Shown one piece after another: positions 7,741 through 25,208 of a DNA stretch of 32,000 nucleotides (positions within the stretch are counted from its first letter, which is position 1; each line of letters starts with the position of its first letter). Made by a program: the position numbers and the translations under genes. Under the pieces are notes generated by a model, which was not told where the DNA came from, searched no databases, and saw nothing but the letters and a program-made list of their open reading frames with translations. Source of the stretch: Fastidiosibacter lacustris (GTDB lineage: Bacteria; Pseudomonadota; Gammaproteobacteria; Francisellales; Francisellaceae); the NCBI RefSeq assembly GCF_003428155.1, contig NZ_QLIR01000012.1, forward strand, positions 31,917 to 63,916, given 5' to 3'.

Positions 7741-7744
7741 GTCG

Positions 7745-8674: not shown

Positions 8675-8746
8675 ATTTAAATATTTGGTACAAAAATCTC
8701 GCTTTGGATTGATATTCAAATAAATTCTTTGAGCTAAATTGCCTAT

Positions 8747-9076: not shown

Positions 9077-9235
9077 GTAAAAAGCAATCAGAAAAATGAT
9101 CTATTGCTCTCCCCAAGTAATGTGAAGTAATTAAACAATGTATATGTATACTTCAAAATTTATGCTATAGCTAGTCTGGCTGTTAATAATACAATATACG
9201 AAAGTTATCACTAAAAATACCTTGCCTGGAAGAAC

Positions 9236-9259
9236 CCCCAGAAATGGGGATCGTTTTTT
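9236..9259 (+). terminator. Candidate intrinsic terminator (short GNRA-capped hairpin plus T6)
   Basis: CCCCA-GAAA-TGGGG (9236-9249), then ATCG and TTTTTT (9254-9259). The stem is only 5 bp and the T-tract is offset by 4 nt, so this call is weak. Confidence 0.3.
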
Positions 9260-9595
9260 GTTCAGTGCGCCGTAATTTTAAAACTTGAAGAAAACAGTAA
9301 CATTGAACTTTTTTAGATTGAATAATAGTCAAATAACAACGCAGACACATAAAAACGCGCATAAATTAGATTTAACCGTATTTTTTATTGATTTTGAACG
9401 ATTGCATTATCGTATTACAGATAATTGAACAGCGCTTAAATATGAAAGCTGAATTTTTAACCAGAATTGCTAAAAAAATGAATTTTTAGACTGATTTTGA
9501 AAATTTAAGGAGAAATACGCCTGCGCTATAAGCTGAAAACGTTAATTTTTTTAAAAAAAATTGCATATTCCTGTTCACCATAAGGGAGCCAGTCC

Positions 9596-9859
9596 ATGAA
9601 GCTAAAACTTAACATACAACGTGATATTCACGATAAAATAAAGCTTCAAGGCAGTAAACTTATACTACCAATGCACTTTGATGTTGTCGAGGTTTATAAA
9701 GATGTACCCTTATTTGAGCCAGACGATAGCAAGCAGATTGTCACTATCCATTATCATGTGGATGATGATTTATATGCAGCCGTGTATTTTTACTTTGACG
9801 ATGGCAGTTATGCCAGACTGGTATGGCGGTATGGAGCAAGTGACAAAAATACAAGGTAA
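9596..9859 (+). CDS. Hypothetical protein (87 aa)
   Basis: ATG preceded by AAGGGAG at about 7 nt. No recognisable motif. An alternative-frame ORF at 9678-9899 lacks an SD. Confidence 0.5.
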   Translation: MKLKLNIQRDIHDKIKLQGSKLILPMHFDVVEVYKDVPLFEPDDSKQIVTIHYHVDDDLYAAVYFYFDDGSYARLVWRYGASDKNTR

Positions 9860-10271
9860 TGTTTTAAATAGCACCTCAGGTATCGCTTATGAGGTATAGG
9901 CTAGAAAGCAATTTTCAAATTACTATAACCAGTTTACTGACGTATTCCGACTGAACTATAGGTTCCCTGCAAAGCCCTCCAATTTTCCCTGTTTTGAAAA
10001 AATAAAATCACTCAATGCCATATACAGTAACGCTTGTAGTGAAAATCAATGTTTCTCTAAAATAAGTTTCGTCAAGGTGCTTTTATCGAGTGGGAGGTGA
10101 GATGATGAGAAAGCGACCTTGACTAACTGTGGCTAAGTATAGTCTAGCAAATATTAAAGCAACTTAATTAGCAAGTATTTTTACCTTTTTTATTATTTTT
10201 TCACATTACATTCATTGATCGCAAAAAAGCAAAAAATAGACGAATAACGCAATAACACAGGAGAAGAAACT

Positions 10272-13200
10272 ATGATGTCAATTGGCGTTGTCAGTTCAGG
10301 CAGCAATGTACACAAGTATTTCATCGACAAAGATAATTACTATTTAACCGATAAGTCTGAGTTAAAAGAAGCGGCAACTTGGTATGGCAAAGGCGCTGAA
10401 TTACTGGGCATTAAAGGTGAGCAAGTCGATGAAAAGTTATTTTTAGATTTACTTCACGGCAGATTACCTAACGGTGAGCAAGTTGGCATTATGCGTGATG
10501 GTTCTTTCAAACATCGCCCTGCAACGGACATTACGTTTTCAGCACCTAAATCGTTATCTATTATGGGTTTGGTTGCAGGTGATACACGCTTGATTGAAGT
10601 CCATAACAAAGCTGTTGAAAAAGCATTAGGCAAGATTGAAGCTTTGTATGCTGAAGCACGTATTACTGAAAATGGCATCACAAGCTATGAAAAAACTGGG
10701 AACTTAACCATTGCCGCCTTTCGTCACACCTCATCTCGTGAAAAAGACCCGCAACTGCATACGCATGGCGTTACGATGAATTTTACGCAAAGAGAAGATG
10801 GGCAATGGCGTGCGCTATCTTCCCGTCAAAAAAATGATGTACAGCATCTTGAAAATGGCTTTAGAGAAATGCTTTATGCCAATCAGCATTACTTGGGCAT
10901 GATTTATAATAGTGAAATTGCTAAAGGCACCGTTGAATGCGGTTATGAAATCAAAGTCAAAGATCAATATGGCAACTTTGATATTGTTGGATTGTCACAA
11001 GACTATCTTGAAAGCCAATCTAAACGCAGAACACAGATTCTCAATAAGCTTGAAGAAAAAGGACTTAACGGTGCTAAAGCTGCACAAAATGCTTGCTTAG
11101 ACAGCCGTATTGCTAAAAGTGATATTTCACCTGATGAATTAAAAGCTGCATGGATTGAAGATGCCAAAGCACAAGGGGTCAGCCTTGGTAAAGTGTTTAT
11201 GGAATCTATAAACAACCTTGAGCAAGATGCAAAAGAAGAAAAGGAAGCAGAAAAGGCAAAAGAAACCAATAGCACTAAAAATAATACGCCGAATGACCAA
11301 CTACCGTCAAAAGCTTATGTCACCAGTGACCTACAAACACACTCACATAACGCCAAAGAAGCCATTAGTGATGCGGTTGCTCATTTATCTCAATATGGCG
11401 TGCAGATAAAGCATGGGGATATTATTCGCCAAGCCTTTGTTTTTTCAGCCGGACTGGTTGAGCATGATCATTTAGAAGCGGTATTGTCGGATAAGCTTAA
11501 AACAGGTGAGCTTATTGGGCGTGAGCATCAATACTATACGACAGATCAATTAGTAAAAGTCGAAAAAGATTTCATGCAGTTTGCTAAAGCATCAATGGTA
11601 AGTGCATGGTCGGTTAACCTTAATCGTTCTGGGTTAGAAGCCTCATTATTTAACCATAAAGACCGCTTGCAATTGATTGATGTTAAAGGCTTGCGCAATG
11701 AAGCAAAACTGATTGACGGACTGGTTAAAACGGCTGAGAACAACGGTTTAAATGTCTATGTATTGCATCAAAACTATTCACGCTTAAATAGGCTTAAAGA
11801 AGATGTTAAACGTGATGGATCAAGCTTATGGAAAGCCTTTAAAAACCATTTTAAGCATGACTTACTGCAAACCGTTGGTAAGTTTGAGCATGATTATACG
11901 CAAAAGCTTAATAATCCTTTTTTTTCTTTTGCTCAATTAAGCCATAAGCAGGACTTAATTATTGTCGCGGATAGCCAAAAACTTGGCATTAAAGACGTTG
12001 AACGCTTAAATACATTAGCCGAAAAAGGGAAAGCTAAGATTGCCTTTTTAAATAATACCGAATCAACCCTTGGCTTTAGTGCGGGCAATCCAATGAAGCT
12101 ATTAAAAGAGTCTGGTGTTAATCAGTTAAGATCACAAAGCATTTCCAAGAACACGCTAGTAGAAGTGGCAAGCTTCAGTGAAGCACACAAAGCTTTAGCA
12201 TATCATTATGTTGGTTTAGATAATGAAGCTAAAAAAAATACGCCGATTGTGGCTTTTACCAATAAAGCACAAGCAGAAATCACTGGTGAGATTCGTGATC
12301 ACTTGAAAGAAAATGGCGAGCTTTCCTTACAGGAAAATCACTACCAAACACTATCAACCAGTCGCTTAAGTGACATTGAAAAAACCAAAACGCAATGCTA
12401 TCAACTTGGTGATAGCGTGACACTGAATCCGTTTGCCCAAGCTGAAGAAAATGGAAAAAGTAAAAGAAGTGAAAAAGGTGAAAAAAATGGCGAAAAGCAC
12501 AAACAGCAAAGTTATCTTGTGACGGGTATAGATCGCGACAATCAAGCTTTACACTTAACGAATCGTCACGGTGAGTCAATACAATTGTCACTGAAAAAAG
12601 AAGATTTATTTCATGCTGATGGCAGCTTTAAAGTTAATTTTGAAGCCAATAAAAGCAAAACAATGGCAATTGCTGTCGGTGAAACCCTACGAGCCACCCG
12701 TAATCTTTATCTGGATTATCAGGCGGATTCAATAGATAACAGTAGTAAAAGTGATAAAAGTGGTCAAAGCGGTGAAAGTAATAAGGATAGCAAAGTTGAA
12801 ACCGTCAAAACAGTTAAAATTGATAAAAACAGCACCTTTAAAGTGCAGTCCATTGCTGAAAATGGTATCCATATTCAGCACGACAATAAAACCATTTTTG
12901 TAGCCAATGAAAAGCTGCAAAGAAGTTTCATTGAGCATGGCTATGTCATTAAACCACATCAGTTAAGCAAGGATACTGATAGTGTTTTAACTGCGCTTTC
13001 AAGTTATCAGGTCAATCAAAATAACATTGGTGAGATTGCTGAGTTTGCGAAAAAAGTCACCCTTTTTACCGATAATCCAGAAAAAAGCACCCAAGCTTTA
13101 AACGCACAGCAAGTTTCATGGTTGGCATTAGATGTCGCCAGTGGCAAAGCACAAAGCTACAACCCGATTGTACGAACAGAAGAAGCCATCAGAAAAGACT

Positions 13201-16200
13201 TAGAGGTGGTGGCTAAAGCCTTATCTGGTGATGACAAAACCAAAGCAGATACGGCCGTTTCTTATGGTATTGCGAAACTGGCTGAGCGTGAGGCAGGCTT
13301 TCAACTGAATGACTTACTCAAAGAGTCGATGAAATATGCCCTTGGCTCGGTATCGCTTGAGGATATTGAAAAAATCATTGCTGATAAATCCAAGCAAGGT
13401 GATTTGTTGGTTACAGGACAAACAGTCACAACAGCTTATGCCTATCAGTTAGAGAAAAATATTATTCAAACGGTTAAAGACAATCACGCCAGTGTTGCAC
13501 CTATTTACGACAAAGTACCTACTTTGAGCCAGGAGATAAGTTTCACCCAAGGACAAAAAGATGCGGTGAGCTTAGCCTTAACCACCAATGATCGTTTTAT
13601 TGGGGTGCAAGGGCTTGCCGGTACAGGAAAAACCACGATGATGAAAGAGTTGAAACAACATGCTGAAAAGGCAGGATTCAATATCATTGGTATTGCGCCA
13701 ACACATAAGGCAGTGCAAATGCTTGATGAGTCTATCAATAAAGAAGTGACTGGTAGTCGCTTTGAAAAAGCGGGGATTCCGGTGATTACTGCACATAGTT
13801 TTATTAATAAAACAAATACAACACATGATGGACACGATACGAACAAGATAGATAACAGCAAAACCCTGTTTATTATTGATGAATCATCGATGTTGGGTAA
13901 TCGGATTTATCATGATATTCAAAAGAAAATTGTTAGTCTCAATGCCAGAGGCATCTTCTCAGGCGATATTAAGCAACAGGTGGCGATTGAAAGCGGGAAA
14001 CCGCAAGAGTTAAGCATGAATAACGGCTTAAAATATGCCTCAATGAATGAAATTGTGCGCCAAAACCCTAACCCACAATTAAAAATGTCGGCTGTATTAG
14101 CAGCAGATAAACAACCGGCTAAAGCATTAATCAATCTTGAAAGTATTAATCCTTTTGATCATATTCAGCGTAAGGATTTTTACAGTAGCGAGCCAATTTC
14201 TTTTATTGAAGTTGGTGCCGCAAAGGATGGTCAAGGCAAAGTATTACTAGATGACAATGGCAAACCCTCGTTAACTAATCTATATGATGTAATTGCTAAG
14301 GATGTATTAACACGCATACCAGAACAGCGCGAAAATACCATTGTGGTTGCTTCAACGCATAAAGATCGCCATGAGATAGATCAACGTATTCGCCAAGGAC
14401 TCATTAATGATGATCACATTAAAAATGAAGTCAATGCAACTCGTTTAATGTCAAAAAACATTGATCAAGCAGATATGTTACATGCTAAAAACTATGAGGT
14501 TGGTGACATACTACGCTTTGAAAGAGGTTACTCAGTTGCCAAAAAAGGGGATTACATGCAAGTGATTGGTATTGATGAAAGCCAAAATAAACTCAATGTG
14601 ATAAACATCGGTGATGGCAATAACTACAGTATCAATCCTGCCAGTATTGCCTTAAAAGCCGATATGAGTGTTTATAAAGAACTAGAAGTACAACTTGGTG
14701 TTGGTGATCGCATCCGACTACGCCAAAGTGACCCTAAGCGTGGTTGGGTCGGTGGTGCTGAGTATAAAGTCAGTGCCATTGAAGATGGTAAGGCTTATTT
14801 AACTTATTTACATCACACGAATGCACAGAATAATAAGCATAATGAAAATAACACGCATACTCATAACCTCACCATTCATCTTACGGATAAAAAAGATCAG
14901 CTTTGGGATTACGCTTATACCAATACAACCTATAGTGCCCAAGGCGCTACGTCCAAATATTTTATTGGGTTAGCCGATGAAAATTATCGTTCGATGTATA
15001 TTCAGCTAACACGCGCAAGCATGCAAGCAACGATATACACAGCGAACAAAGTAAAGCTCCTCAATGGCTTAGAAGATGCTAGACGGCAACTGCAAGCTGA
15101 TAAACTATCCGCTTATGAGATGCTGCATCAAAGCCATCAACAAAAAGAAATTGAAAAAAATGAAACAATTAAAACAATTAAAATAACAAAAGGTGCCTAC
15201 AATAAGCAACATCAAATCAGCAATACTAATGTAAGTGTCGATGGAAAGGGCATACCTATTGCTAAAACACGAGATAAAACAGGGTATACTGCTAAAGAAA
15301 AAATAGAAAAACCAGTTTTAGCTGATGATATTAAGCCACTTTTACGCCAGAGAATGGAGGAGTTAGCGATAAGCTTATTGGGTGAACCTAACAAAGCACT
15401 CTCAAATCAAACCCAGTTACGGTTTGGTAAAAATGGCAGTTTAACGGTGAATTTAGAAAAGGCACAATGGTTCTCACATGAAACTGGCAAGGGTGGCAAT
15501 CCCTTTGATCTCATCAAACATGAGCTGAATTTTAGTGACTTCAAGGATGTCTTGGACTATGCCAAAAAGTTTGTCAATTACACGCCAGATATGCAGTATA
15601 TTGAAGTTAAACCTAAGCCTACTGAGCAAATCAATCTTGAAGATGAAAAACGACAAGAGAGAAAAGAGAAACAAGAGCAAATGAAAGCATTAGGTGATAG
15701 GTTATATCAGCAGTCTGTACCCATTAAAGGCACACTTGGTGAAAAGTATCTAGCAGAATGTAGAGGATTATCATGCTATGAAAATGCAGATATTCGTTTT
15801 GTAAATTCGATCTCTGGCATCGACAAAACAACTGGTAATAGAATCTATACCCCTGCTATTTTATCAGTTGCTAAAGATGATAAAGATGCGCTTCACCATG
15901 TGCAAGTAATTCGATTAAATCAAGATGGCAGCAAAAATAAAGACGTTAAAATCACCAAACAAACTTATGGTAAAATGGATGGCTTTGCTGTGGATTTAAA
16001 CACCAAAGCCGATAAGTCTGTCACCTATCTTGCCGAGGGTGTTGAAACAGGATTATCCATTCTTAATATTCATAAAAATGCACACGTTTTAGCCGTTTTA
16101 GGGAAGTCAAATTTTGCAAATATAAATACAGATAAGCTTGCTGATAAGATAGTTATTTGCCTTGATAATGATTTTAAAGGGAAAGATACATTTAATAATG

Positions 16201-16805
16201 AGCAGAAATTATCAGATCATATTAAATCTATAAAAAGAAACTGTGAACAAATAAATGCGTTAGCTAACCACTTCAAAAGTTACGGAAAAGAGGTACGTTT
16301 TATATTACCAGATAGAGATAAATTTGACTTTAATGATGTATTAAATCAACAAGGATATGCTGAACTTAGCAGACAAGTAAATCAGCTAATAACAGAAAAA
16401 GACTTTAGTAAAATAACGAATAAGTATATTGAAATAAAATTAAATCACATCAATGACGAGATGAGTAAGCACATTAAGTCAATAAAAAATGAATATGAAA
16501 AATCAATTATGCAACATCCTAGTTTAAATCATTTAAACTCATGTCACGATAAGGGCTTATTAATAAATGAGACTATTAATAAATCGAATATTTATAAAGA
16601 TACACTGCTATCAGATCAACGAATAATGGATGCAAAGAAACGTCTTGATAGTCAATTACAAAATCAAATTCGACATGACCAGATTGAAAATATCGTTGGC
16701 AAAATAGATAAAGTAGATAAAATAAATAAGATAGATAAAACACCTAATGCAAAACATCAGGAAACGCTAAAATCACAATCAGTTAATAAGGAAATTGAGC
16801 GATAG
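10272..16805 (+). CDS. traI: TraI: MOB-F relaxase + RecD-like helicase + C-terminal Toprim/primase-like module (2177 aa)
   Basis: AGGAGA SD. The N-terminus MMSIGVVSSGSNVHKYFIDKDNYY...GKGAELLG...HRPATDITFSAPKSLS parallels F TraI (MMSIAQVRSAGSAGNYYTDKDNYY...GKGAEQLG...HRPGYDLTFSAPKSVS), including Tyr16. His triad HTSSREKDPQLHTH at 10724-10766. Walker A GLAGTGKTT at 13611-13637. C-terminal Toprim signature: AEGVETG (Glu 16035-16037) and ICLDNDFKG (DxD 16164-16172). Confidence 0.92.
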   Translation: MMSIGVVSSGSNVHKYFIDKDNYYLTDKSELKEAATWYGKGAELLGIKGEQVDEKLFLDLLHGRLPNGEQVGIMRDGSFKHRPATDITFSAPKSLSIMGLVAGDTRLIEVHNKAVEKALGKIEALYAEARITENGITSYEKTGNLTIAAFRHTSSREKDPQLHTHGVTMNFTQREDGQWRALSSRQKNDVQHLENGFREMLYANQHYLGMIYNSEIAKGTVECGYEIKVKDQYGNFDIVGLSQDYLESQSKRRTQILNKLEEKGLNGAKAAQNACLDSRIAKSDISPDELKAAWIEDAKAQGVSLGKVFMESINNLEQDAKEEKEAEKAKETNSTKNNTPNDQLPSKAYVTSDLQTHSHNAKEAISDAVAHLSQYGVQIKHGDIIRQAFVFSAGLVEHDHLEAVLSDKLKTGELIGREHQYYTTDQLVKVEKDFMQFAKASMVSAWSVNLNRSGLEASLFNHKDRLQLIDVKGLRNEAKLIDGLVKTAENNGLNVYVLHQNYSRLNRLKEDVKRDGSSLWKAFKNHFKHDLLQTVGKFEHDYTQKLNNPFFSFAQLSHKQDLIIVADSQKLGIKDVERLNTLAEKGKAKIAFLNNTESTLGFSAGNPMKLLKESGVNQLRSQSISKNTLVEVASFSEAHKALAYHYVGLDNEAKKNTPIVAFTNKAQAEITGEIRDHLKENGELSLQENHYQTLSTSRLSDIEKTKTQCYQLGDSVTLNPFAQAEENGKSKRSEKGEKNGEKHKQQSYLVTGIDRDNQALHLTNRHGESIQLSLKKEDLFHADGSFKVNFEANKSKTMAIAVGETLRATRNLYLDYQADSIDNSSKSDKSGQSGESNKDSKVETVKTVKIDKNSTFKVQSIAENGIHIQHDNKTIFVANEKLQRSFIEHGYVIKPHQLSKDTDSVLTALSSYQVNQNNIGEIAEFAKKVTLFTDNPEKSTQALNAQQVSWLALDVASGKAQSYNPIVRTEEAIRKDLEVVAKALSGDDKTKADTAVSYGIAKLAEREAGFQLNDLLKESMKYALGSVSLEDIEKIIADKSKQGDLLVTGQTVTTAYAYQLEKNIIQTVKDNHASVAPIYDKVPTLSQEISFTQGQKDAVSLALTTNDRFIGVQGLAGTGKTTMMKELKQHAEKAGFNIIGIAPTHKAVQMLDESINKEVTGSRFEKAGIPVITAHSFINKTNTTHDGHDTNKIDNSKTLFIIDESSMLGNRIYHDIQKKIVSLNARGIFSGDIKQQVAIESGKPQELSMNNGLKYASMNEIVRQNPNPQLKMSAVLAADKQPAKALINLESINPFDHIQRKDFYSSEPISFIEVGAAKDGQGKVLLDDNGKPSLTNLYDVIAKDVLTRIPEQRENTIVVASTHKDRHEIDQRIRQGLINDDHIKNEVNATRLMSKNIDQADMLHAKNYEVGDILRFERGYSVAKKGDYMQVIGIDESQNKLNVINIGDGNNYSINPASIALKADMSVYKELEVQLGVGDRIRLRQSDPKRGWVGGAEYKVSAIEDGKAYLTYLHHTNAQNNKHNENNTHTHNLTIHLTDKKDQLWDYAYTNTTYSAQGATSKYFIGLADENYRSMYIQLTRASMQATIYTANKVKLLNGLEDARRQLQADKLSAYEMLHQSHQQKEIEKNETIKTIKITKGAYNKQHQISNTNVSVDGKGIPIAKTRDKTGYTAKEKIEKPVLADDIKPLLRQRMEELAISLLGEPNKALSNQTQLRFGKNGSLTVNLEKAQWFSHETGKGGNPFDLIKHELNFSDFKDVLDYAKKFVNYTPDMQYIEVKPKPTEQINLEDEKRQERKEKQEQMKALGDRLYQQSVPIKGTLGEKYLAECRGLSCYENADIRFVNSISGIDKTTGNRIYTPAILSVAKDDKDALHHVQVIRLNQDGSKNKDVKITKQTYGKMDGFAVDLNTKADKSVTYLAEGVETGLSILNIHKNAHVLAVLGKSNFANINTDKLADKIVICLDNDFKGKDTFNNEQKLSDHIKSIKRNCEQINALANHFKSYGKEVRFILPDRDKFDFNDVLNQQGYAELSRQVNQLITEKDFSKITNKYIEIKLNHINDEMSKHIKSIKNEYEKSIMQHPSLNHLNSCHDKGLLINETINKSNIYKDTLLSDQRIMDAKKRLDSQLQNQIRHDQIENIVGKIDKVDKINKIDKTPNAKHQETLKSQSVNKEIER

Positions 16806-16887: not shown

Positions 16888-17217
16888 TTATTTCCCACTT
16901 TTCCCTTTCAAATAAGCTGATGTTTTGTTTTCAATCATCGTTATCAATGTATCGGCATCAAAGAATTTACCTGTTGTTTTAGTTTTATCAAAGACACAGC
17001 GTATAATCTCTTTAACCACTTCGTTGGTTTCAATGGCATATTTCACACTATCATCTACTGCAAGATCATCTGATGACTTATCTAGCGATGATTTATGCAC
17101 TCTTAATCCTAAATCAAGCATATCAAGCGCAAAGTTAGCCGTTGATTTACTACTGCTTTTGGCATGTTTTTCTAATTCTTCATAGACATTAGCGCCTATA
17201 TCTAATTTCATTTCCAT
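16888..17217 (-). CDS. traM: TraM-like relaxosome accessory protein (RHH-type N-terminus)
   Basis: MEMKLDIGANVYEELEKHAK...ANFALDMLDLGLRVHKSS resembles F TraM (VNLYISNDAYEKINAI...ATASMLLELGLRVHEAQ as recalled). Size is similar (109 vs 127 aa) and it lies next to the predicted oriT. The third codon ATG (17209-17211) overlaps the upstream gene's TGA as ATGA, so the start may be 17211. Confidence 0.55.
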   Translation of the reverse strand: MEMKLDIGANVYEELEKHAKSSSKSTANFALDMLDLGLRVHKSSLDKSSDDLAVDDSVKYAIETNEVVKEIIRCVFDKTKTTGKFFDADTLITMIENKTSAYLKGKSGK

Positions 17218-17705
17218 TGGTTTTTATCCTCTTCAATTGGAATAGTTTTCATGTTATTTCTATCATTTGAAACATAAATATTTTTATATTCTTCACCTTG
17301 AATCTGTCCACATTTTTTCACTGTTTCATCTAGAGAAATGGCGAATATTTTCTTGGCAATCTCGGTATCATTTATCTTGCCTAAAAGACATTTCGTGCTT
17401 ATTTGTGCTGCATGAACAAGGTGAGGTATCATAATATTTATTTGCTCTGTTAACTTTACTAAATGATTAATGTCATCAGAAATAACAACGTTTTTACCTT
17501 GTTTTTCTTCCTTTTTTTCCAATATTTTTTCGCGAATTAAATGCTTAATTGCCAAACCCAATGATGGCTCATTGTTACTTTTTAATAATGCGTTGTCATA
17601 TGCCAATTTGGTTAGATACTTTTCTTCGGTTTCAGATAACCTTAATGAGGTTGGGTATTGTTTTGATTCCATAAGGCGTTTTTGCTTGATTTTTATGTAG
17701 TGCAT
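17208..17705 (-). CDS. Ribbon-helix-helix protein, candidate TraY-like oriT-binding/regulatory factor
   Basis: PTSLRLSETEEKYLTKLAYDNALLKSNNEPSLGLAIKHLIREKIL fits the RHH pattern (beta strand then two helices). It is the first gene leftward of the predicted oriT and is translationally coupled to the TraM-like gene. The start is uncertain (17705 or 17672; neither has an SD). Confidence 0.5.
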   Translation of the reverse strand: MHYIKIKQKRLMESKQYPTSLRLSETEEKYLTKLAYDNALLKSNNEPSLGLAIKHLIREKILEKKEEKQGKNVVISDDINHLVKLTEQINIMIPHLVHAAQISTKCLLGKINDTEIAKKIFAISLDETVKKCGQIQGEEYKNIYVSNDRNNMKTIPIEEDKNQWK

Positions 17706-18254
17706 TGTAGCGCATATAAAGTGGACTTGCTAGCTATTTGTATCACATTTTACTACTTATAACGGTTTTATAAGGCTAGTCTCTGTATTAAATTGTGCTA
17801 CAATCAGGCTAATGAGTATATCCCTTGTACTACAATGTAGTTTTTACATATAAATACTTTACTCTGATGCCAAGAGATGCTTATAAATAAAGGCTTCTCT
17901 ATGTATTATTTTTTGCTACAAGATAATCAGGAGTATTTTTAATGATTTTATATTCGCTAAAAAAAGCCAAAAGCCTTTATTTACAAGACTTTGAATAAGC
18001 CTTTTTAGGCAACACTCGATTGCGTGGTGTGTGGCAGGGTCAGGGAGGTCGTGTCGAGGATACCTTGGATTTAATGTAATGATTATGATAATCGTTATCG
18101 TACAGTGTGCGTATGAAAATTGAGCAGACAATCCTATGCCGTTTGAATGGAAATTGACATTTTAAGCCTATACCTTTTAAAAAGATGGAATAAAATTAAA
18201 GGACAATAAAAACAAGATAAAATCGGTTTGATTTTTTAAAAAAATATTATTTTT
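17706..18254 (+). other. Probable origin of transfer (oriT) region
   Basis: A 549-bp gene-free interval between the RHH/TraM-like genes and ardC. It contains an F/R100-like nic sequence, three ATTGTAG/CTACAAT motifs (two of them palindromic) and a perfect 13-bp inverted repeat (17884-17896 / 17971-17983). Confidence 0.6.
18020..18037 (+). other. Candidate nic site (predicted cleavage between 18032 and 18033)
   Basis: TTGCGTGGTGTGT|GGCAG compared with F TTTGCGTGGGGTGT|GGTGC and R100 TTTGCGTAGTGTGT|GGTGC, both as recalled. It matches F at 14 of 15 positions over TTGCGTGG.GTGTGG. At the two positions that differ between F and R100 it carries one base of each. Confidence 0.55.
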
Positions 18255-19208
18255 CTATGTAACTTTTTCATATTGATCATTTACATTAATATTCAAAAGA
18301 AAACTAAAAACTTTTACGCAACATTTAACAGCTTCCATATAATCATCATCTGTTAAAAGTGAAAGCCAACTTTCAATATATTTTTCATGATTTTTTATCT
18401 CGCCATTAATACCAAAATGCTTTAATAAAATGGTGCTGCTGATCTCAGCAATTAACTCTTCTTTTGCATAAGACTTTTTGCATGAAAAATTTATTTCTCG
18501 ATTTAATCTGCTTGGATGCAATGTCCAATGCGCTAACTCATGCAAAAGCGTTGCCTGATAGTCTGCCTCAGTTCTAAAATATTTTGGGCTTGGCAGCCTT
18601 ATTTCGTCTAACTCTGGTGAGTAATAAGCTTGACCAATGTCATGATGAACAATTTTTGGATTGTGTGCATTAATCAAGCTTTCGATACCACTATCAGTTT
18701 TTATTTCCTGATCAACATCTTTTAAGGTTGTTTGCGTTAAATTAAAAACGCGGTACATTTTAGGGCATATAGCAGTATATTTGTATTTATCACCCGCTTT
18801 AACTTTAACTAAATGACCATTGTTTTTATATTCATAATCAGTTTTCGCGTCACCTTCCTTTTTGTAAGTTGTAAAGAAAAAGACTTCTTCCGATTTTTCA
18901 CCTTTACGCACACTCCCACCAAGTTCATTTATTTGTTTGAAAGTAAACCATTGATTAGACTTGTATTTATTTTCAAGTTGCGAAAATAATAATTGCAAAA
19001 CGTTAACGCCGTTATATAGTTTTGATTGACTATTAACAGGCAATAACTGACTTCCTGAGCGATCAAAATTATCTACCCAAACGTCTGCGCCTTTTTTGAT
19101 ATTTTCTTTAATCTTTTGAGCAATAGACAAAACATAATCCTGATATGTTGTTTTTACTGTTTTTGAAGTTTTTAAAGTGCTATATTTTTTTACTTTTGTT
19201 GTAGTCAT
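18255..19208 (-). CDS. ardC: ArdC-like antirestriction protein (N-terminal ssDNA-binding domain + C-terminal zincin metalloprotease)
   Basis: 317 aa with a GGAG SD. The N-terminal part is DUF1738-like. The C-terminal part has LLHELAHWTLHPSRLNR (HExxH) followed by YAKEELIAEISS, typical of ArdC/TraC-type proteins. Confidence 0.85.
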   Translation of the reverse strand: MTTTKVKKYSTLKTSKTVKTTYQDYVLSIAQKIKENIKKGADVWVDNFDRSGSQLLPVNSQSKLYNGVNVLQLLFSQLENKYKSNQWFTFKQINELGGSVRKGEKSEEVFFFTTYKKEGDAKTDYEYKNNGHLVKVKAGDKYKYTAICPKMYRVFNLTQTTLKDVDQEIKTDSGIESLINAHNPKIVHHDIGQAYYSPELDEIRLPSPKYFRTEADYQATLLHELAHWTLHPSRLNREINFSCKKSYAKEELIAEISSTILLKHFGINGEIKNHEKYIESWLSLLTDDDYMEAVKCCVKVFSFLLNINVNDQYEKVT

Positions 19209-19246
19209 CGTATTATCTCCATTGTTGTGTTGATAACACCTTTTGC

Positions 19247-19321
19247 AACAAGCCTTAAAAAATTAAATGCAAGGGTGCCGCAGGCACTTGCGTAGCCCTT
19301 GCATTTGAATTTTGGCTTGTT
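19247..19321. other. Composite long hairpin upstream of ardC (terminator and/or ssDNA-active element)
   Basis: AACAAGCC-TTAAAAAATT-AAATGCAAGGG-[TGCCGCAGGCACTTGCGTAG]-CCCTTGCATTT-GAATTTT-GGCTTGTT. There is a perfect 11-bp inner stem and a perfect 8-bp outer stem, with partly pairing A/T between them. The apical loop holds its own mini-hairpin TGCC-GCA-GGCA. Confidence 0.6.
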
Positions 19322-19344
19322 AAAAAAGAAAATATTACTAGGCT

Positions 19345-19363
19345 ATCACGCTGTAAGCGTGAT
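19345..19363. terminator. Hairpin ATCACGC-TGTAA-GCGTGAT downstream of the TA operon
   Basis: Perfect 7-bp stem. The T-run (TCCTTTTTG) follows it on the plus strand only. On the minus strand, the sense of the TA operon, the U-tract is displaced by ~14 nt. Confidence 0.4.
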
Positions 19364-19433
19364 TCCTTTTTGTCGGCGTTGTTTATTTTTTGAGATTTCA
19401 GGAAAGAACTTTAAAGGGATTGAGATAAAAAAA

Positions 19434-19739
19434 TTATGATAAATATTTTAAGCCATTCTCATCAACGAGATTAATTAGTTTTAAGATAGCACCCTTAGCT
19501 TGTCGCGTGCCCTGCTCAAGACTTTTAACCATTGCTGGACTGATATTAAGAAATTTAGCAAATACCGCTTGGCTGACGTTTTGACGTTCTCTAATTGCTT
19601 TTATATCATCGCCTGTATATTCGTATACTGTTGGCGTTTCAACTTCGGTTAATTCGCGCAGGGTTGTTTTGTCAATAATACCACTGGTGTATAGATCATT
19701 TGACAAGTCGTTTATGGTTTCTCTTATGCTGCTCATCAT
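19434..19739 (-). CDS. HTH (XRE/NadS-type) antitoxin
   Basis: IKAIRERQNVSQAVFAKFLNISPAMVKSLEQGTRQAKGAILKLINLV is the typical HTH of antitoxins paired with PF06296-type RelE toxins. Its ATG overlaps the toxin's TGA (ATGA at 19736-19739). Confidence 0.8.
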   Translation of the reverse strand: MMSSIRETINDLSNDLYTSGIIDKTTLRELTEVETPTVYEYTGDDIKAIRERQNVSQAVFAKFLNISPAMVKSLEQGTRQAKGAILKLINLVDENGLKYLS

Positions 19740-20107
19740 ATCACCTTAAATAGTTTTTTATCTGCGATTAACGTTTGCACATCACTATCACTTAATGACA
19801 GTAATATGCTAGACAACTTTTTAAAGTCCACAAGCTCGCGCTTTGTGAAGTTTTCTTTTTCATTCTTTTTAAAGCAATGCACCCAGTAACATACAACGCC
19901 ATCACTAAAAACAATAATGGTTCGACTGCTGCCGCTTTTGCCTTTATTGTCTGTCGCTACTCTAAGCTTATATAAGCTGCCACCTAATGCATATCTTTGC
20001 TTACCCAAGTCATCTAGTGAAGCAAAGTAATTTAATGTTTCTTTTAAATCTGCATCGCTAATATGTTTTGATTCACTTGCAAACTTTTTTATTTTATAAT
20101 TTTTCAT
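19736..20107 (-). CDS. RelE/HigB-2-like toxin (123 aa from ATG 20107)
   Basis: LGGSLYKLRVATDNKGKSGSSRTIIVF...FKKNEKENFTKRELVDFKKL matches the G-x-YK-R-ia...GKSGG-R-i...F-KNe-eNl-E signature. The track's extra 41 N-terminal residues are AT-rich promoter sequence. Confidence 0.75.
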   Translation of the reverse strand: MKNYKIKKFASESKHISDADLKETLNYFASLDDLGKQRYALGGSLYKLRVATDNKGKSGSSRTIIVFSDGVVCYWVHCFKKNEKENFTKRELVDFKKLSSILLSLSDSDVQTLIADKKLFKVI

Positions 20108-20118
20108 GCTTAAAATAG

Positions 20119-20166
20119 TTGGCTGTATGTTACATAGTATTATAATACACTGGCTTACCATGTCAA
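20119..20166. promoter_or_regulatory. Back-to-back sigma70 promoters sharing one palindromic -10
   Basis: Minus strand: TTGACA (20161-20166), 16 nt, TATAAT (20139-20144), reading into the toxin gene. Plus strand: TTGGCT (20119-20124), 16 nt, TATAAT (20141-20146), reading into the 81-aa gene. Both -10 boxes lie inside the perfect 12-bp palindrome GTATTATAATAC (20137-20148). Confidence 0.55.
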
Positions 20167-20223
20167 TAAAACAATAAAGCAAAAAATTAAAAATAATGAT
20201 ATAAACATAAGGAAGTAAATAAC

Positions 20224-20469
20224 ATGCCAAGCATTACAAAACCATCTGCACCCAGTTATATGACGCTACCTAAAAAAGTTAGAATCACCGAGGAAACTTA
20301 CTTTAAAATGCTAGAGTATCTGGATTGGAATCAATCGCTTGATGGCGAAAACGATATTGATTTTTTAATTGAGGAATCCATTAAAATTGCACTCGAATCT
20401 GATAAAGATTTTAAGCGTAGAAATAAAGTGAAGAAAACAGCAGCGGTTAAGGAAGAAGCGACTGCATAA
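20224..20469 (+). CDS. Hypothetical small protein (81 aa, possible RHH-like regulator)
   Basis: ATG preceded by AAGGAAG. PKKVRITEETYFKMLEYL resembles an RHH strand-helix start. It is divergent from the TA operon. Confidence 0.5.
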   Translation: MPSITKPSAPSYMTLPKKVRITEETYFKMLEYLDWNQSLDGENDIDFLIEESIKIALESDKDFKRRNKVKKTAAVKEEATA

Positions 20470-20487
20470 TGCAGTCTAATAACTCAC

Positions 20488-20841
20488 TTAATAGCGATAC
20501 TCAGGGATGCGTTCGATTTCGTTATCAATGCGATACGTCATATCATCACAGTAAACATTTTCTAGCTTCTTAATCGTTGCATGCTCCAGTATCTCATACC
20601 GGCATTCATTAGATGTCGTAAACTTCGGCGGGTATTCACTAAACAACACTTCATAGGTGTCACTGCCAAAACAGTAACGGATATATACATAACCATCTAA
20701 ATGCCTTGCATTGACTTTAAACATCAGTGTCGTTTCATCTAGGCGCTTAAAGTCATGCGCACCCCAACTCCAAACCAAGGTTCTTCCGCCTGTAAATAAT
20801 TGCTGTATGATTGTGTTTACGTAATAGTTTTTATCATTCAT
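20488..20841 (-). CDS. Hypothetical protein (117 aa), leading-region orphan
   Basis: Strong SD (AAGGAG 7 nt upstream). No motif recognised. Trp/Tyr/Cys-rich globular composition. Confidence 0.6.
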   Translation of the reverse strand: MNDKNYYVNTIIQQLFTGGRTLVWSWGAHDFKRLDETTLMFKVNARHLDGYVYIRYCFGSDTYEVLFSEYPPKFTTSNECRYEILEHATIKKLENVYCDDMTYRIDNEIERIPEYRY

Positions 20842-21134
20842 GGTTGTGCTCCTTTTGTAGCTTGCTTTTGGTTGTTTTTATTATTTTTATTTTTTCGCTT
20901 TGTGGTCGAGAAAGTTTTTGATAACCCATTTATTCCATATTGTGCAAATTAACAAACATTGACTATGATTAATCTATGCGCTTGAGCGGTTGAAACGAGG
21001 CGTTTTTATTAATTTTATTTGGTATTCTCTTGCTCAGGTGTATAACCTTTATAAAACACATAAACTGCCCAATTGACCATAACCGCATTAAAAGCTAATA
21101 TTCGTGCAAAACAATATTGAGTAACACAATTACC

Positions 21135-21377
21135 ATGCGTAATGACGAAAAGAAAATCATGGCTATTGACGCCAAAGTTAAAGCCCTCCGTGCTAAAAAC
21201 ACCGATGACATGATACTTTTAACCGAAATGATTGATGAGATGCTAATTTTTAGAGAAACTATGAAAAATACTAAACCAGAGCAACTAAATGCCTACTGTC
21301 AGAAATATACCAACTTTTTCTACTTTGCAAAACTACTGGACAATCTTGCAGACAAACTCGCCAGCGCTAAAGCCTAA
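21135..21377 (+). CDS. Hypothetical helical protein (80 aa from ATG 21135; track start TTG 21117)
   Basis: An ORF with helical, charged composition. No SD precedes either start, so the call is weak. Confidence 0.35.
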   Translation: MRNDEKKIMAIDAKVKALRAKNTDDMILLTEMIDEMLIFRETMKNTKPEQLNAYCQKYTNFFYFAKLLDNLADKLASAKA

Positions 21378-21393
21378 AATTTCCTGTTTTACG

Positions 21394-21407
21394 ACCACGA
21401 TCGTGGT
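21394..21407. terminator. Bidirectional terminator-like palindrome between convergent genes
   Basis: Perfect 14-bp palindrome ACCACGATCGTGGT, flanked by GTTTTACG on the left and TAAAAAAC on the right. This gives a U-run after the hairpin for transcripts from the minus-strand genes; the plus-strand transcript gets an A-run. Confidence 0.5.
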
Positions 21408-21435
21408 TAAAAAACGGAAAATCAGAAATTTAAAT

Positions 21436-21771
21436 CTATTGCCCATCACTAAAATACGCATCAATGCCTTTCTGTACTAGCTGATATTCAAACCCTTTAT
21501 TCAGCAAATATTTTAAAAGCTTTTGCTTCTTGCCATAATCGGTTTTGCCTTTAATCAAAGGATACTTAGCACTGATTCTGCGTAGAACATTGTTAAACTG
21601 CTGTACTTCGTCAACGACAACTAACTTGTCAATCATGCTTTGTGGTATCGCTTTCTTTTTGAGCTTATCAATCAATGCACCTGTTGATATATCTTGGTTA
21701 CTTTCAATGATACGCCTTGCTTTGTTTTCTAATAGCATATCGTTGGTTATATTGGCGTTGTCTAGAGTCAT
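21436..21771 (-). CDS. RecX-family mini-protein (two helical repeats, 111 aa)
   Basis: AAGGGA SD. KARRIIESNQDISTGALIDKLKKKAIPQSMIDKLV parallels the first repeat of E. coli RecX (RAMRLLAHRDRSEWELRRKLAQKGFSEEVIEQAI, as recalled). AKYPLIKGKTDYGKKQKLLKYLLNKGFEYQLVQKGI parallels the last repeat ([34 protein letters not shown]). The middle repeat is absent. Confidence 0.5.
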   Translation of the reverse strand: MTLDNANITNDMLLENKARRIIESNQDISTGALIDKLKKKAIPQSMIDKLVVVDEVQQFNNVLRRISAKYPLIKGKTDYGKKQKLLKYLLNKGFEYQLVQKGIDAYFSDGQ

Positions 21772-21784
21772 TGTGGCATCCCTT

Positions 21785-22486
21785 TTACATCTTTATTATT
21801 CTTTTTATCCTGTTCTGCCTTCTCTCTTCCTTAATTACCTCGGCTTCTGGTATCTGATTAAATGCAAATTTCACCTGCGCATTACTTAATATATTAGTTA
21901 GGTTAGCCGTATCTATTCGATTAACTTTTATATCTTCAGACTTGCAAAATTCCCCATTGTTATCAATCCCAATGATTATGTAGCGGCGTTCACTTTCATT
22001 GAGCGTGTTGGCTAATGATATAATATCCTTAAACAAGTCACCCTGTTTTTTTGAATCCTTAGAATACCATTCACGCTTAAAATCATGGCGTTCACTTTCT
22101 CTTTTAGATTCAATTAACGGGATTATATCTTTACGTACTTCAATATATTTAGGTGTTGCTTGCAACTCTATCTTGTCTGCATCTTCTGGTTTTAGCTCTA
22201 GTTTAGAATGTTTTATTAATACGTTTAGTAAAGCAGTCCCTTTTATTTCTAAAATATGATGGGTATTTAAGGATAAGCAGTATTTTTTATCTTTACTAAA
22301 TTCAAAGCTAAGGTTGTTTAATATATCAGACTCTCCAGCCTTGGAAAAATCATCCTCAAGGAGATTGTCAATTTTATGAAATATGCTTATTTTGACAACT
22401 ATCTCACCCTTCCTATCGCTATAGTGGCTCTGCACAATTCCAATATAGCCTTTAAGACTTAGTATCAAGTTGAAGCTCCGGAACAC
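21785..22486 (-). CDS. Protein with a C-terminal AlbA_2/Schlafen-like DNA-binding domain and an unknown N-terminal half
   Basis: ESERHDFKREWYSKDSKKQGDLFKDIISLANTLNESERRYIIIGIDNNGEF fits the AlbA_2 pattern E-x-lEFK...i-k-i-AfaNt-GG-liiGvdd-G. The track start is GTG 22486 without an SD. TTG 22468 follows GGAG at 7 nt and is the more likely start. Confidence 0.5.
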   Translation of the reverse strand: MFRSFNLILSLKGYIGIVQSHYSDRKGEIVVKISIFHKIDNLLEDDFSKAGESDILNNLSFEFSKDKKYCLSLNTHHILEIKGTALLNVLIKHSKLELKPEDADKIELQATPKYIEVRKDIIPLIESKRESERHDFKREWYSKDSKKQGDLFKDIISLANTLNESERRYIIIGIDNNGEFCKSEDIKVNRIDTANLTNILSNAQVKFAFNQIPEAEVIKEERRQNRIKRIIKM

Positions 22487-22667
22487 AAAGACAAATTTTT
22501 GAGCTGTTCAAAACAGTGTCATTTTGAATTCTATTTTCCATGTATTTTAATTCGATAAAACTCGCTTCAATATCACTATCAAAATCATCATTTACAACTA
22601 AAATAAAACTATCCATAAATACCATTAACCTTTTATGTTCCAGCTTCCGATATAGATATGCATACAA
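22452..22667 (-). CDS. Small acidic protein (57-71 aa), overlapping and probably coupled to the AlbA_2-like gene
   Basis: ORF with a TTG start at 22667, or ATG at 22625 or 22616. Acidic core VVNDDFDSDIEASFIELKYMEN. Its 3' end overlaps the next gene by 17-35 nt. Confidence 0.35.
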   Translation of the reverse strand: MYAYLYRKLEHKRLMVFMDSFILVVNDDFDSDIEASFIELKYMENRIQNDTVLNSSKICLCVPELQLDTKS

Positions 22668-22901
22668 GCGACCAATAATAAAAATTCTCTGGTTTGTTCT
22701 GTGAATTTATTGCTTAGCATCACTGTTTTTCTACGGCTGATATGCTTTGCTCAAATTCTACAGATAATTACAAGCTTATCAAACGCTCACTCCTTGTGAC
22801 ATCAATAAATTTTCACTGCGCACTGATAAACTTGCTTATTTTGAGGTATTACACTACTTTAGTCATTGGTAAAACATATATAACCAAAGGAGTAACATTA
22901 T

Positions 22902-23117
22902 ATGAAATACCTAAGCCCTATCGCACTTATATTAATTATCATCGGTGGCTTAAACTGGCTGCTCGTTGGTTTGTTCAATTTCAATCTCGTCCATGCCATT
23001 TTTGGCAAACTGGGCTTTGTTGAAAACATCATCTACATTATCGTAGGTATTGCGGCTTTAATTTGCATTCCCATGCTCAAGAAATGCTGCCCAAAATCAT
23101 CTTGCAACAAGGACTAA
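22902..23117 (+). CDS. DUF378-family small membrane protein
   Basis: AAAGGAG SD. IIGGLNWLLVGLFNFNLVHAIFG...IIYIIVGIAAL is the characteristic DUF378 (YuzA-like) two-TM signature. Confidence 0.8.
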   Translation: MKYLSPIALILIIIGGLNWLLVGLFNFNLVHAIFGKLGFVENIIYIIVGIAALICIPMLKKCCPKSSCNKD

Positions 23118-23428
23118 TCAACATTGTGGGAAATCAATTTACTGATAACTTTTGCGCCGCAGTTGAAAACACAACAGGGCAGACAATTGCGGATTTTTTA
23201 ACACAATGCGCCAATCAAGGCTTGACCTACACAGAAGTTGGTGAGCTTTTTGGTTACAAGCAGAATACGGTTAGAAAATGGTGCAGACGATGCAATGTCT
23301 CGCTATACAATGAAAGCAGTCTTAAAGCGCTAAACTCACCCGTTAAAAAAGCAGCCATTGAGCAATTACTTGATGACATCAAAATCAAATCCCTTAGCTG
23401 CTCAAATGTACTGTATAAAGCTTGGTGA
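23063..23428 (+). CDS. Putative HTH protein (start uncertain; possibly GTG 23126, giving 100 aa)
   Basis: GLTYTEVGELFGYKQNTVRKWCRR is HTH-like. The track start overlaps the DUF378 gene by 55 nt. GTG 23126 lies 9 nt after the DUF378 stop. Confidence 0.45.
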   Translation: MHSHAQEMLPKIILQQGLINIVGNQFTDNFCAAVENTTGQTIADFLTQCANQGLTYTEVGELFGYKQNTVRKWCRRCNVSLYNESSLKALNSPVKKAAIEQLLDDIKIKSLSCSNVLYKAW

Positions 23429-23433
23429 AAATC

Positions 23434-23664
23434 ATGCAGCGCTTGGAAACAGAAACCAAGTTTTATGAGATAATCGTTAATCAGGATTTATTAGGCGACA
23501 TAGTTTTAATTTGCTATTTTGGCGGAAAAAACAGCCATCGCCATCAGTCAAAAACGATCAAGTTAGATTCGTTTTTACAATACTGTAAAGCGTATAAAAA
23601 AATTATCACTACCCGATTGAAACATGGGTATTGGTTTATCCATCATTCACCGCAAGACTTTTAA
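23434..23664 (+). CDS. WGR-domain-like small protein (76 aa)
   Basis: KFYEIIVNQDLLGDIVLICYFGGKNSHRHQSKTIKLDS...AYKKIITTRLKHGYW follows the WGR pattern (kfYEi-v-dLfG-w-l-WGRiG...f-s...A...K-kGY). The WGR triplet itself has degenerated to YFGG. The ATG lies 6 nt after the upstream stop. Confidence 0.5.
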   Translation: MQRLETETKFYEIIVNQDLLGDIVLICYFGGKNSHRHQSKTIKLDSFLQYCKAYKKIITTRLKHGYWFIHHSPQDF

Positions 23665-23726
23665 AATGCAGGCGATACAGCTTTGTGCTATGATGTTTTA
23701 AGCCAAAATAATACCGCTAATTTTCA

Positions 23727-25208
23727 ATGACTAGAAAAAATAATTGGAAAACACCCATCCCATTATCGCATATATCAGCAAAGCAAGCTGATTATCCGCT
23801 TGATGCTTTACCTGATATTATCAAAGATGCTATCCAGTCTTATGCCGAGTACGGGCAGCAACCCATTCCATTATTAGCTAATAGCGCCCTGTCTAATGTC
23901 TCACTAAGCTGCCAAGGGCTAGCCAATGTTGCACGTGATGATGTGCTGACCAGCCCTGTCTCCATGTACTTTATTACGGTTGCATCCAGTGGTGAGCGTA
24001 AAACGGCGGCTGATAAAGTCTTTAGCAAAGGTGTTGAGGATTGGCAAAATAAGACAACGAAAACCATGATGCCAGAATATACGCGCATCAAAAATGAATA
24101 CACTACTTGGTCAATCAAGCGCAAAGGATTGCTAATGATGATTAGACGTTTAGCTACTCAAGGTTATGAAACAGATCAATATGATGGTTACTATGATCAA
24201 GTAATGCTTGAAGAACCAGAAATACCTTTATTGCCTAAACTTAAATATGAGGACATCACCGCAGAAGCTTTAAGCGAAAACTTAGCAAAGGAATATCCAA
24301 GCACAAGTATTTGGTCAGACGAGGCAGGCATTTCCTTATCAAGCCCAAGTATGCAAAAAGACAACACAAAGTTTGTTGCCTTACTAAACCGGCTATGGGA
24401 TGCGCAACCCATAGCCGTACATCGTAAAACAACCGGTGATCTATTCATCAAAGATCGGCGGTTTACACTGAACCTAATGATGCAACCACTATTGTTAGAA
24501 CAAATGCTCAAAAAAGGTGATGGCATTAATAGAAACAGTGGTTTTCTTGCACGAACCTTATTAGCTTACCCTACTTCAACAATGGGCAATCGATATTACA
24601 AAGAGCCATTCAAGAACGTCACTGAACATCTTGATAAATTTCACAGGCGCATTAAAACCTGTCTGAGCAACACTCAGCCAGTTGATAAATACGGTTTTGG
24701 ATACATTCCAACGCTTATCTTTAGCAAAACAGCTAAAGAAGCATGGGTGAAATACTTTAATTATATTGAAACCGCTATCGCCAACGAATACCACTGGCAA
24801 TCAATCCATGACTTGGCATCTAAAGCCAGTGAGAATATTGCAAGGCTAGCTGCCCTATTCCATTTATTTACAGGTAAACAAGGCACTGAAATATCTGCTG
24901 AACACATCGAGTCTGCTTATCAGATTATCGAATGGCATTTAAATGAAGCTAAACGCATCTTTGGAGAAACCAAACTGACACAGGTTGAGCACGATGCCAA
25001 GTTAATAATTGACGCCATCATCTCAAAGAATATTGTTGAAACCACTTCACGCGAGATTTTACGTGTCACACCCGTCCGTGACAAAAGCAGACGAGATCAA
25101 GCAATTAAGCTACTTGAGAAGTCGAATTACCTTATTTCAACGCCAGATGCTAAGCGCACAAAGATCATCTTTCACCCAACGCTATTCAAAACCTCTGTGA
25201 CAGTTTGA
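23727..25208 (+). CDS. DUF3987 (YfjI-like) protein
   Basis: The N-terminus WKTPIPLS...ADYPLDALPDIIKDAIQSYAEYGQQPIPLLANSALSNVSLS is typical of DUF3987 proteins, followed by SSGERKTAADKVF. Size is 493 aa. Confidence 0.7.
   Translation: MTRKNNWKTPIPLSHISAKQADYPLDALPDIIKDAIQSYAEYGQQPIPLLANSALSNVSLSCQGLANVARDDVLTSPVSMYFITVASSGERKTAADKVFSKGVEDWQNKTTKTMMPEYTRIKNEYTTWSIKRKGLLMMIRRLATQGYETDQYDGYYDQVMLEEPEIPLLPKLKYEDITAEALSENLAKEYPSTSIWSDEAGISLSSPSMQKDNTKFVALLNRLWDAQPIAVHRKTTGDLFIKDRRFTLNLMMQPLLLEQMLKKGDGINRNSGFLARTLLAYPTSTMGNRYYKEPFKNVTEHLDKFHRRIKTCLSNTQPVDKYGFGYIPTLIFSKTAKEAWVKYFNYIETAIANEYHWQSIHDLASKASENIARLAALFHLFTGKQGTEISAEHIESAYQIIEWHLNEAKRIFGETKLTQVEHDAKLIIDAIISKNIVETTSREILRVTPVRDKSRRDQAIKLLEKSNYLISTPDAKRTKIIFHPTLFKTSVTV

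Follow-up and report, generated by a model that had tools for sequence, protein, structure and literature searches.

The 32,000-nucleotide stretch of DNA considered here (the window) very probably includes, at positions 17673-18254, the oriT of an F-type (MPF_F, MOBF12-like) conjugative plasmid belonging to a lineage found in Cysteiniphilum, Piscirickettsia and Legionella. As read from the sequence, the plus strand would be the T-strand, and the ardC side would be the first to enter the recipient. A first-pass annotation of the same DNA had placed oriT here, with the plus strand as the T-strand and the right side going first, and comparison with five relatives supports this view: the motif, its strand and its position are kept in all of them, at 47-96% relaxase identity.

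A precise predicted oriT and nick position (between T18032 and G18033, plus strand) is obtained for plasmids of Cysteiniphilum, the salmon pathogen Piscirickettsia and Legionella, and ArdC and a toxin-antitoxin pair are the genes predicted to come first into the recipient. The two nic bases and two relaxase residues that experiments had shown to distinguish F from R100 vary together, in the same manner, among 16 distant MOBF plasmids, and this provides a cheap rule for matching relaxases with their oriT sequences. In our opinion, the outcome is a useful annotation and a modest evolutionary point, with no new mechanism. No description of oriT was found in the literature for this Cysteiniphilum/Piscirickettsia/Legionella plasmid lineage. 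The coordinates of the features are collected in Table 1.

Table 1. Features of the predicted oriT region, the transfer genes and the predicted leading region (positions in the window).
Feature	Position	Strand	Remarks
TraG_N protein	232-3132	+	F-type transfer gene
TraT	3689-4447	+	
TraD	4454-6460	+	Coupling protein
traI	10272-16805	+	2177 aa; TrwC-type relaxase, AAA_30 helicase, DUF7146-Toprim_3
Second accessory gene	16888-17217	-	109 aa; overlaps the first; TraM-like N-terminal DNA-binding part
First accessory gene	17208-17672	-	154 aa, counted from Met12 (probable start) of a 165-aa ORF
Predicted oriT region	17673-18254	.	Intergenic, from the first accessory gene to the 3' end of ardC; ~580 bases
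TGTRNNAC-type heptad/dyad repeats	17696-17919	.	Mostly pairs 10-11 bp apart
Heptad pairs	about 17696/17706, 17739/17749, 17826/17836, 17901/17912		
Palindrome ATTGTGCTACAAT	17791-17803		Within the heptad array
Partly conserved A/T-rich block (AAGCYAAAAG ... CTTTGAATA ... GGCAA)	17962-18019	+	5' of nic; from the six-way alignment
Predicted nic core, TTGCGTGGTGTGT/GG (slash, nick)	18020-18034	+	Unique; 1 mismatch to F; invariant in five relatives
Predicted leading region, six ORFs	18255-22486	-	6/6 with the predicted T-strand as template
ArdC	18255-19208	-	PF08401 (ArdcN), E 4.5e-23; PF18818 (zincin-like metallopeptidase), E 5.8e-34; both above cutoffs
HTH_3 ORF	19434-19739	-	
RelE-like PF06296 ORF	19736-20230	-	
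ORF without assigned family	20488-20841	-	
RecX_HTH3-like ORF	21436-21771	-	
Schlafen AlbA_2 ORF	21785-22486	-	

Predicted nic core

The plus strand at 18020-18037 reads TTGCGTGGTGTGTGGCAG, exactly as had been claimed, with the core TTGCGTGGTGTGT followed by GGCAG. The F and R100 nic sequences given in the first-pass annotation are borne out by the records. In the F record (NC_002483), nic is TTTTTGCGTGGGGTGT, followed after the nick by GGTGCTTT (the 3' side of the nick was read as GGTGCTTTTGGTGGTGAGAACCACCAA), and lies on the strand antisense to traM, at a distance of 322 bp from the ATG of this gene; in the R100 record (NC_002134), it is TTTTTGCGTAGTGTGT, followed after the nick by GGTGCTTT.

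The genuine F 15-mer TTGCGTGGGGTGTGG matches the window nic with one mismatch, and none of its 100 shuffled versions has any match in the window. The window 15-mer itself gives a single match at up to 2 mismatches across the window, where 0.06 is expected by chance, and a window-wide search with the 13-nt core at up to 1 mismatch revealed no second site besides 18020.

In the numbering of F, G18026 and T18028 of the window correspond to positions 147' and 145', and T18032 and G18033 to 141' and 140'. The G then T reported at the bases that distinguish F from R100 are indeed present, G at 147' being F-type and T at 145' R100-type. Compared with F (TTTGCGTGGGGTGT/GG, the slash marking the nick), the window is alike at 14/15 positions and has T instead of G at 145'; compared with R100 (TTTGCGTAGTGTGT/GG), it has the same T145', but G rather than A at 147'. 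Substitutions of T141', G142' and G144' are the most damaging for F transfer (Hekman et al., PMC2504302), and all three bases are retained in the window nic. Cleavage is predicted to fall between T18032 and G18033.

The pattern TGCGT-N3-GTGT/G, which defines F-type oriT sequences when it is antisense to the first accessory gene and a few hundred bp away from it, is found here in that very setting. The core of R388, TGCGTATTGTCT/AT, follows the general grammar TGCGT-N3-GTNT; it needs the hairpin IR2 directly 5' of the core, and the gene order of R388 is trwA-trwB-trwC with oriT upstream, which differs from the layout of the window. TrwC of R388 (MOBF11) and the window TraI have a common relaxase fold family (PDB 1omh, E 2e-51), whereas the hairpin 5' of the core is absent from the window.

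Relaxase and transfer genes

The F-like N-terminus ascribed to TraI in the first-pass annotation (MMSI, Tyr16, DKDNYY, H...HTH) was recognised in all its features. The protein starts with MMSI and carries DKDNYY at residues 19-24 and H...HTH further on; over the first 305 residues, it matches structure 1p4d of F TraI (E 2e-59, about 39% identity). In Pfam, TrwC (E 1e-75) and AAA_30 (E 2e-40) were detected. Residues Y16, D21, N22, Y23, Y24, H146, H157 and H159 are invariant in the relaxase alignment. The first Tyr pair (window 10317-10322, TraI residues 16-17) is Tyr-Phe (HKYF) where F has Tyr-Tyr; Tyr-Phe also occurs in P. salmonis, the Thiotrichales genome and Denitratisoma, and among the tyrosines only Y16, Y23 and Y24 are invariant.

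The HUH histidine triad, the catalytic Tyr16 and a fused RecD-like helicase are characteristic of MOBF12 and are all present here, and the (D/E)NYY motif of this group is represented by DKDNYY. At the position of the D(L/F)TF motif, the window has DITF (ATDITFSAPKS), which is strictly outside the published pattern and is a conservative departure from it; P. salmonis has DLTF and the Legionella plasmids DVTL at the same place. One criterion of MOBF12 is >=40% identity to a reference relaxase of this group over the N-terminal 300 aa (PMC5102898, after Garcillan-Barcia 2009), and the N-terminus of the window TraI is 38-39% identical to those of F and R100 and 63% identical to that of the P. salmonis plasmid. 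In Fernandez-Lopez et al. 2016 (PMC5102898), the F-like plasmids of Piscirickettsia, like those of Legionella, belong to an unassigned non-enterobacterial part of MOBF12. Judging from these comparisons, the window relaxase is best filed with the unassigned non-enterobacterial F-like plasmids.

The C-terminal part of TraI bears a DUF7146 and Toprim_3 extension (window 15687-16355, residues ~1806-2028), and this tail is kept in all the Legionella, Piscirickettsia and Thiotrichales relatives examined. A relaxase-helicase fused to Toprim might prime the synthesis of the complementary strand in the recipient. To our knowledge, F TraI (1756 aa) has no such extension.

The association with an MPF_F system is seen in the TraG_N, TraT and TraD genes, which lie upstream of traI on the same strand; only the distal end of the operon falls within the window. 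Inserted between traD and traI (6790-10271) are a 316-aa ORF, a YhgA-like gene (Transposase_31, 7745-8674) and non-coding sequence of ~1.6 kb. G+C-rich palindromic elements occur in this non-coding part, such as CCCCGCAGCAAGCTACGGGG near 8738 and GCAGCAGAGCTGCGGGG...CCCCACGG near 8815.

It is conceivable that the oriT is correctly identified and that the plasmid is decaying or merely mobilisable, so that nic would be used in trans only or not at all. The transposase-like gene and another ORF inserted between traD and traI, together with 1.6 kb of non-coding DNA at the same place, mean that the system could be degraded; a group II intron is situated nearby, the P. salmonis and L. israelensis relatives are typed by MOB-suite as 'mobilizable' and not as conjugative, and of the transfer operon the window shows the distal part alone. 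However, traG, traT, traD and the 2177-aa traI are intact ORFs, and comparison with the Cysteiniphilum JM-1 copy shows full conservation of the nic core and of the two accessory genes. Decay or mere mobilisability therefore appears unlikely to us, and the oriT of a conjugative plasmid is the interpretation retained below.

Anatomy of the oriT region and the accessory genes

The 165-aa ORF that borders the region on the left probably starts at Met12 (17672), because all four homologues align from this residue. With this start, the gap spans 17673-18254 and the distance from nic to the gene is about 360 bp, while the ~330 bp given in the first-pass annotation applies to the longer ORF. The corresponding distance to the TraM gene in F is 322 bp, close to the 330-360 bp of the window. 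The N-terminus of the 154-aa protein, TSLRLSETEEKYLTKLA, looks like a ribbon-helix-helix (RHH) motif. Syntenic proteins with 29-42% identity are encoded in P. salmonis, Thiotrichales, pLPP and L. israelensis; searches of NCBIfam and PDB with the 154-aa protein gave no match.

The 109-aa product of the second accessory gene resembles TraM in its N-terminal part. Against Pfam Tra_M (PF05261) it gave E 4e-4 and 20.8 bits, below the gathering cutoff of 27.7, and its family profile matched weakly the TraM of pED208 (3on0, E 0.0015). When this family was compared with F and R100 TraM by hhalign, the probability was 62.6% (E 7e-5), the match covering 48 N-terminal columns. AF2 single-sequence models of the two accessory proteins had mean pLDDT values of 43 and 53, too poor for a fold search.

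TGTRNNAC repeats are ~30-fold enriched in the oriT region, where their density is 16.6 per kb compared with 0.5 per kb elsewhere in the window. They have no sequence kinship to the sbm and sby sites of F, and they are presumed to be putative binding sites for the accessory RHH proteins. The placing of such repeats between the accessory gene and the core is, as far as the sequence can tell, the anatomy expected of a relaxosome assembly site. The equivalent gap of P. salmonis contains 12 copies of GTAWTAC, and analogous arrays with plasmid-specific half-sites were found in the gaps of Cysteiniphilum JM-1 and Thiotrichales; like arrays were recognised by eye in those of Legionella pLPP and L. israelensis. 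In each plasmid, the repeats mostly form pairs with a spacing of 10-11 bp. Among these plasmids, the half-sites differ: GTAWTAC in P. salmonis, a GTATAC type in Legionella and TGTRNNAC in the window.

The A/T-rich block 5' of nic may be a bending site or a site of contact with the relaxase or an accessory protein. Folding of 17955-18075 as single-stranded DNA revealed no significant hairpin (z = 0.06), so a recognition hairpin like that of R388 is unsupported. F and R100 have an inverted repeat, TTGGTGGTGAGAACCACCAA, immediately 3' of nic, and the window differs from them in this respect, as no repeat comparable to the F-type GGTGGTGAGAACCACC was found directly 3' of its nic. In the Thiotrichales 19S3-11 locus (its positions 17389-17396), the sequence 3' of nic is GGGTGCTTT, which resembles GGTGCTTT of F and R100; the relaxase of this genome is ~35% identical to F TraI, and the likeness is absent from the window and the other relatives. 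A scan of the gap for sigma-70 promoters found none, and the IHF consensus WATCAANNNNTTR has 100 matches window-wide against 86 expected, which is the chance level.

Conservation in related plasmids

Five relatives were compared: Cysteiniphilum sp. JM-1, Thiotrichales 19S3-11, Piscirickettsia salmonis, Legionella pLPP and L. israelensis. Their relaxase domains are identical to that of the window at 96% (JM-1), 65% (Thiotrichales genome), 63% (P. salmonis) and 47-50% (the Legionella plasmids). The layout is the same in all five: traD-traI, two overlapping accessory genes on the reverse strand, homologous to the pair in the window, then heptad repeats and then TGCGTG[G/A]TGTGT. The gaps that correspond to 17673-18254 in P. 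salmonis, Cysteiniphilum JM-1, Thiotrichales and the two Legionella plasmids contain this set of elements in an unchanged order.

The sequence TGCGTGNTGTGT is present in exactly one copy in each of the P. salmonis, Cysteiniphilum and Thiotrichales loci, on the plus strand and past the accessory genes, and the gaps of pLPP and L. israelensis carry the window's own core, GCGTGGTGTGT. The nic core of P. salmonis is one base off that of the window (G146'A). When all six gaps are aligned, no block other than the nic core is invariant; its strand and position are kept. The plasmids of Legionella (pLPP and relatives) and P. salmonis (the p3PS6 family) agree with the window in gene order and in the C-terminus of TraI and differ from it in the leading cargo, which is ArdC in the window and ArdA or other antirestriction genes in these plasmids.

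Specificity bases and relaxase residues

The substitutions E153D, Q193R and R201Q shift the specificity of F TraI toward that of R100 (Harley and Schildbach 2003, as cited in PMC3245843), and the aligned proteins confirm the differences at 153/193/201, which are E/Q/R in F and D/R/Q in R100. The window TraI has D/Q/N at these positions, Gln205 and Asn213 being equivalent to 193 and 201. Gln193, which goes with G147', is shared with F, whereas at 201 F has Arg and the window Asn. Asp153 and a non-basic residue at 201 (Q in R100, N in the window) are shared with R100, whereas at 193 R100 has Arg and the window Gln.

Covariation of the candidate nic bases with the relaxase residues was studied in 16 MOBF relaxase/nic pairs (the window and 15 others). 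G147' is accompanied by Gln at 193 in 13/13 pairs, and A147', seen in three pairs, by R, N or S. With G145', the residues at 201 are Arg, Arg and Lys (3/3 pairs); T145' occurs in 13 pairs, with Lys at 201 in two of them and N, Q, M, T or E in the other 11. The variants of the core include GAG in Blastomonas, ATG in P. syringae, GAT in Pandoraea, GTT in pYKBQ040 and AGT in Aquicella. In the Xanthomonas and Moraxella loci, no intergenic nic candidate was found; these circular records are probably cut at the relevant place. Base and residue changes are independent in distant lineages, R100 and Aquicella being one such case and F and Blastomonas another.

The tracking of specificity residues by nic bases is hard to explain unless the motifs are real recognition sites. 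The data suggest a simple recognition code across MOBF relaxases, in which residue 193 would go with base 147' and residue 201 with base 145'; we infer the residue-to-base contacts (193 to 147', 201 to 145') from the covariation. If true, this code would predict nic specificity across the MOBF family.

The first-pass annotation had deduced a new specificity class from the hybrid G/T bases. The corresponding explanation accepts a genuine oriT and regards the relaxase/nic pair as a new class peculiar to this element, a hybrid of F and R100; it agrees with G147' as in F and T145' as in R100, with the D/Q/N combination found in neither of them, and with the fact that GCGTGGTGTGT was not found printed in a conjugation context in the literature searched, a full-text search returning only unrelated papers on primers and aptamers. 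On the other side, five further plasmids have the identical 12-mer, TGCGTGGTGTGT, as their candidate nic at the corresponding place in oriT: pLPP, L. israelensis, A. baumannii p1BJAB07104, B. glumae p22s2p and Denitratisoma pI. In the last three, it is located just upstream of an accessory gene and reads away from it. In total, it was found in 7/16 lineages sampled, spread over gamma- and betaproteobacteria, and the combination most often seen among the 16 relaxases is Gln at 193 together with an uncharged residue at 201.

Since the same 12-mer is widespread and the residues are the commonest ones, the pair is not peculiar to the window element and not a hybrid by origin, and a class of its own is quite improbable here; the claim of novelty has to be given up. 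By the same facts, the pair of the window represents the majority MOBF state. Its G/T nic core is, on the plasmids compared, a common form outside enterobacteria and not a new one.

It may be tentatively suggested, as a possibility and not as the expected case, that TGCGTGGTGTGT with Gln193 and an uncharged residue at 201 was the ancestral MOBF pair, from which F (T145'G, Arg201) and R100 (G147'A, Arg193) each departed by one base and one residue. If true, the lineage of the window would be a natural intermediate, and specificity could switch without passing through a dead state. The GCGTGGTGTGT core appears so far uncharacterised by experiment, and the TGCGTGGTGTGT class may be functionally distinct from F and R100.

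Orientation and proposed course of transfer

As in F, the window nic points away from the accessory genes, here in the direction of ardC. The records of F and R100 show nic reading from the traM side to the leading region and the leading genes (ssb, psiB and others) on the opposite strand, so that the T-strand serves as their template; the window agrees with both features. The statement that the topology matches F is correct relative to the accessory genes and fails for the operon, as traG-traT-traD-traI is on the nic strand, unlike in F, which means that oriT and the accessory genes form a module in inverted orientation compared with F. The window also differs from F in having no traJ or traY, and its accessory genes follow traI and converge on it. 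The inverted arrangement is common to the whole Legionella/Thiotrichales group.

A functional oriT elsewhere, for example in the non-coding DNA at 8.7-10.27 kb upstream of traI, with the 18020 motif as a look-alike or relic, was considered as well, given the 1.6 kb without long ORFs and the position of oriT upstream of the relaxase operon in many MOBF plasmids, but it is hardly credible and was rejected, as the stretch has no nic-like core at up to 3 mismatches and is not conserved (a DsbA gene is found there in P. salmonis, and in pLPP the 19 bp between traD and traI leave no room for an oriT), while the 18020 motif keeps its place and strand even where relaxase identity falls to 47%.

With oriT at 17673-18254, the following course of transfer may be proposed. 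The TraM-like and RHH-like proteins, whose genes read outward from the gap, would bind the TGTRNNAC heptads and would help to load TraI. The relaxase domain would then bind TTGCGTGGTGTGT on the plus strand and cleave the bond from T18032 to G18033, TTGCGTGGTGTGTGGCAGGG being the nic-spanning sequence predicted as its cleavage substrate, and Tyr16 would be joined to the 5' phosphate of G18033. In this step, the G147'/T145' core with Gln205 and Asn213 would act as the common recognition pair of non-enterobacterial MOBF plasmids. Export of the unwound plus strand would run 5' to 3', so that ardC and the remaining minus-strand genes to the right would be the first to enter the recipient, and these leading genes could be read off the incoming strand.

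Since TraI becomes linked to the 5' phosphate at nic (PMC3074121), entry should begin with the DNA to the right of 18033. As a general rule, leading genes are oriented with the T-strand as a template (Samuel et al., PMC11541004). The arrangement typical of a leading region, that is, anti-defence and toxin-antitoxin genes by oriT with the T-strand as their template, is found to the right of the predicted nick.

In the predicted leading region, the HTH_3 and RelE-like ORFs behind ardC overlap by 4 bp and look like a toxin-antitoxin pair. The same neighbourhood is occupied by a HigB/HTH pair in P. salmonis and an MqsR/MqsA pair in L. israelensis. The cargo further to the right (21436-25208 and 27362-27970) consists of the RecX_HTH3-like and Schlafen AlbA_2 ORFs, a 493-aa protein with DUF3987 (E 9e-85) and a serine resolvase. 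Further on, at 30002-31803 on the minus strand, there is a group II intron (Rfam D1-D4, 113 bits; D5/6, 63 bits) with an intact 419-aa reverse transcriptase/maturase ORF at 30076-31335.
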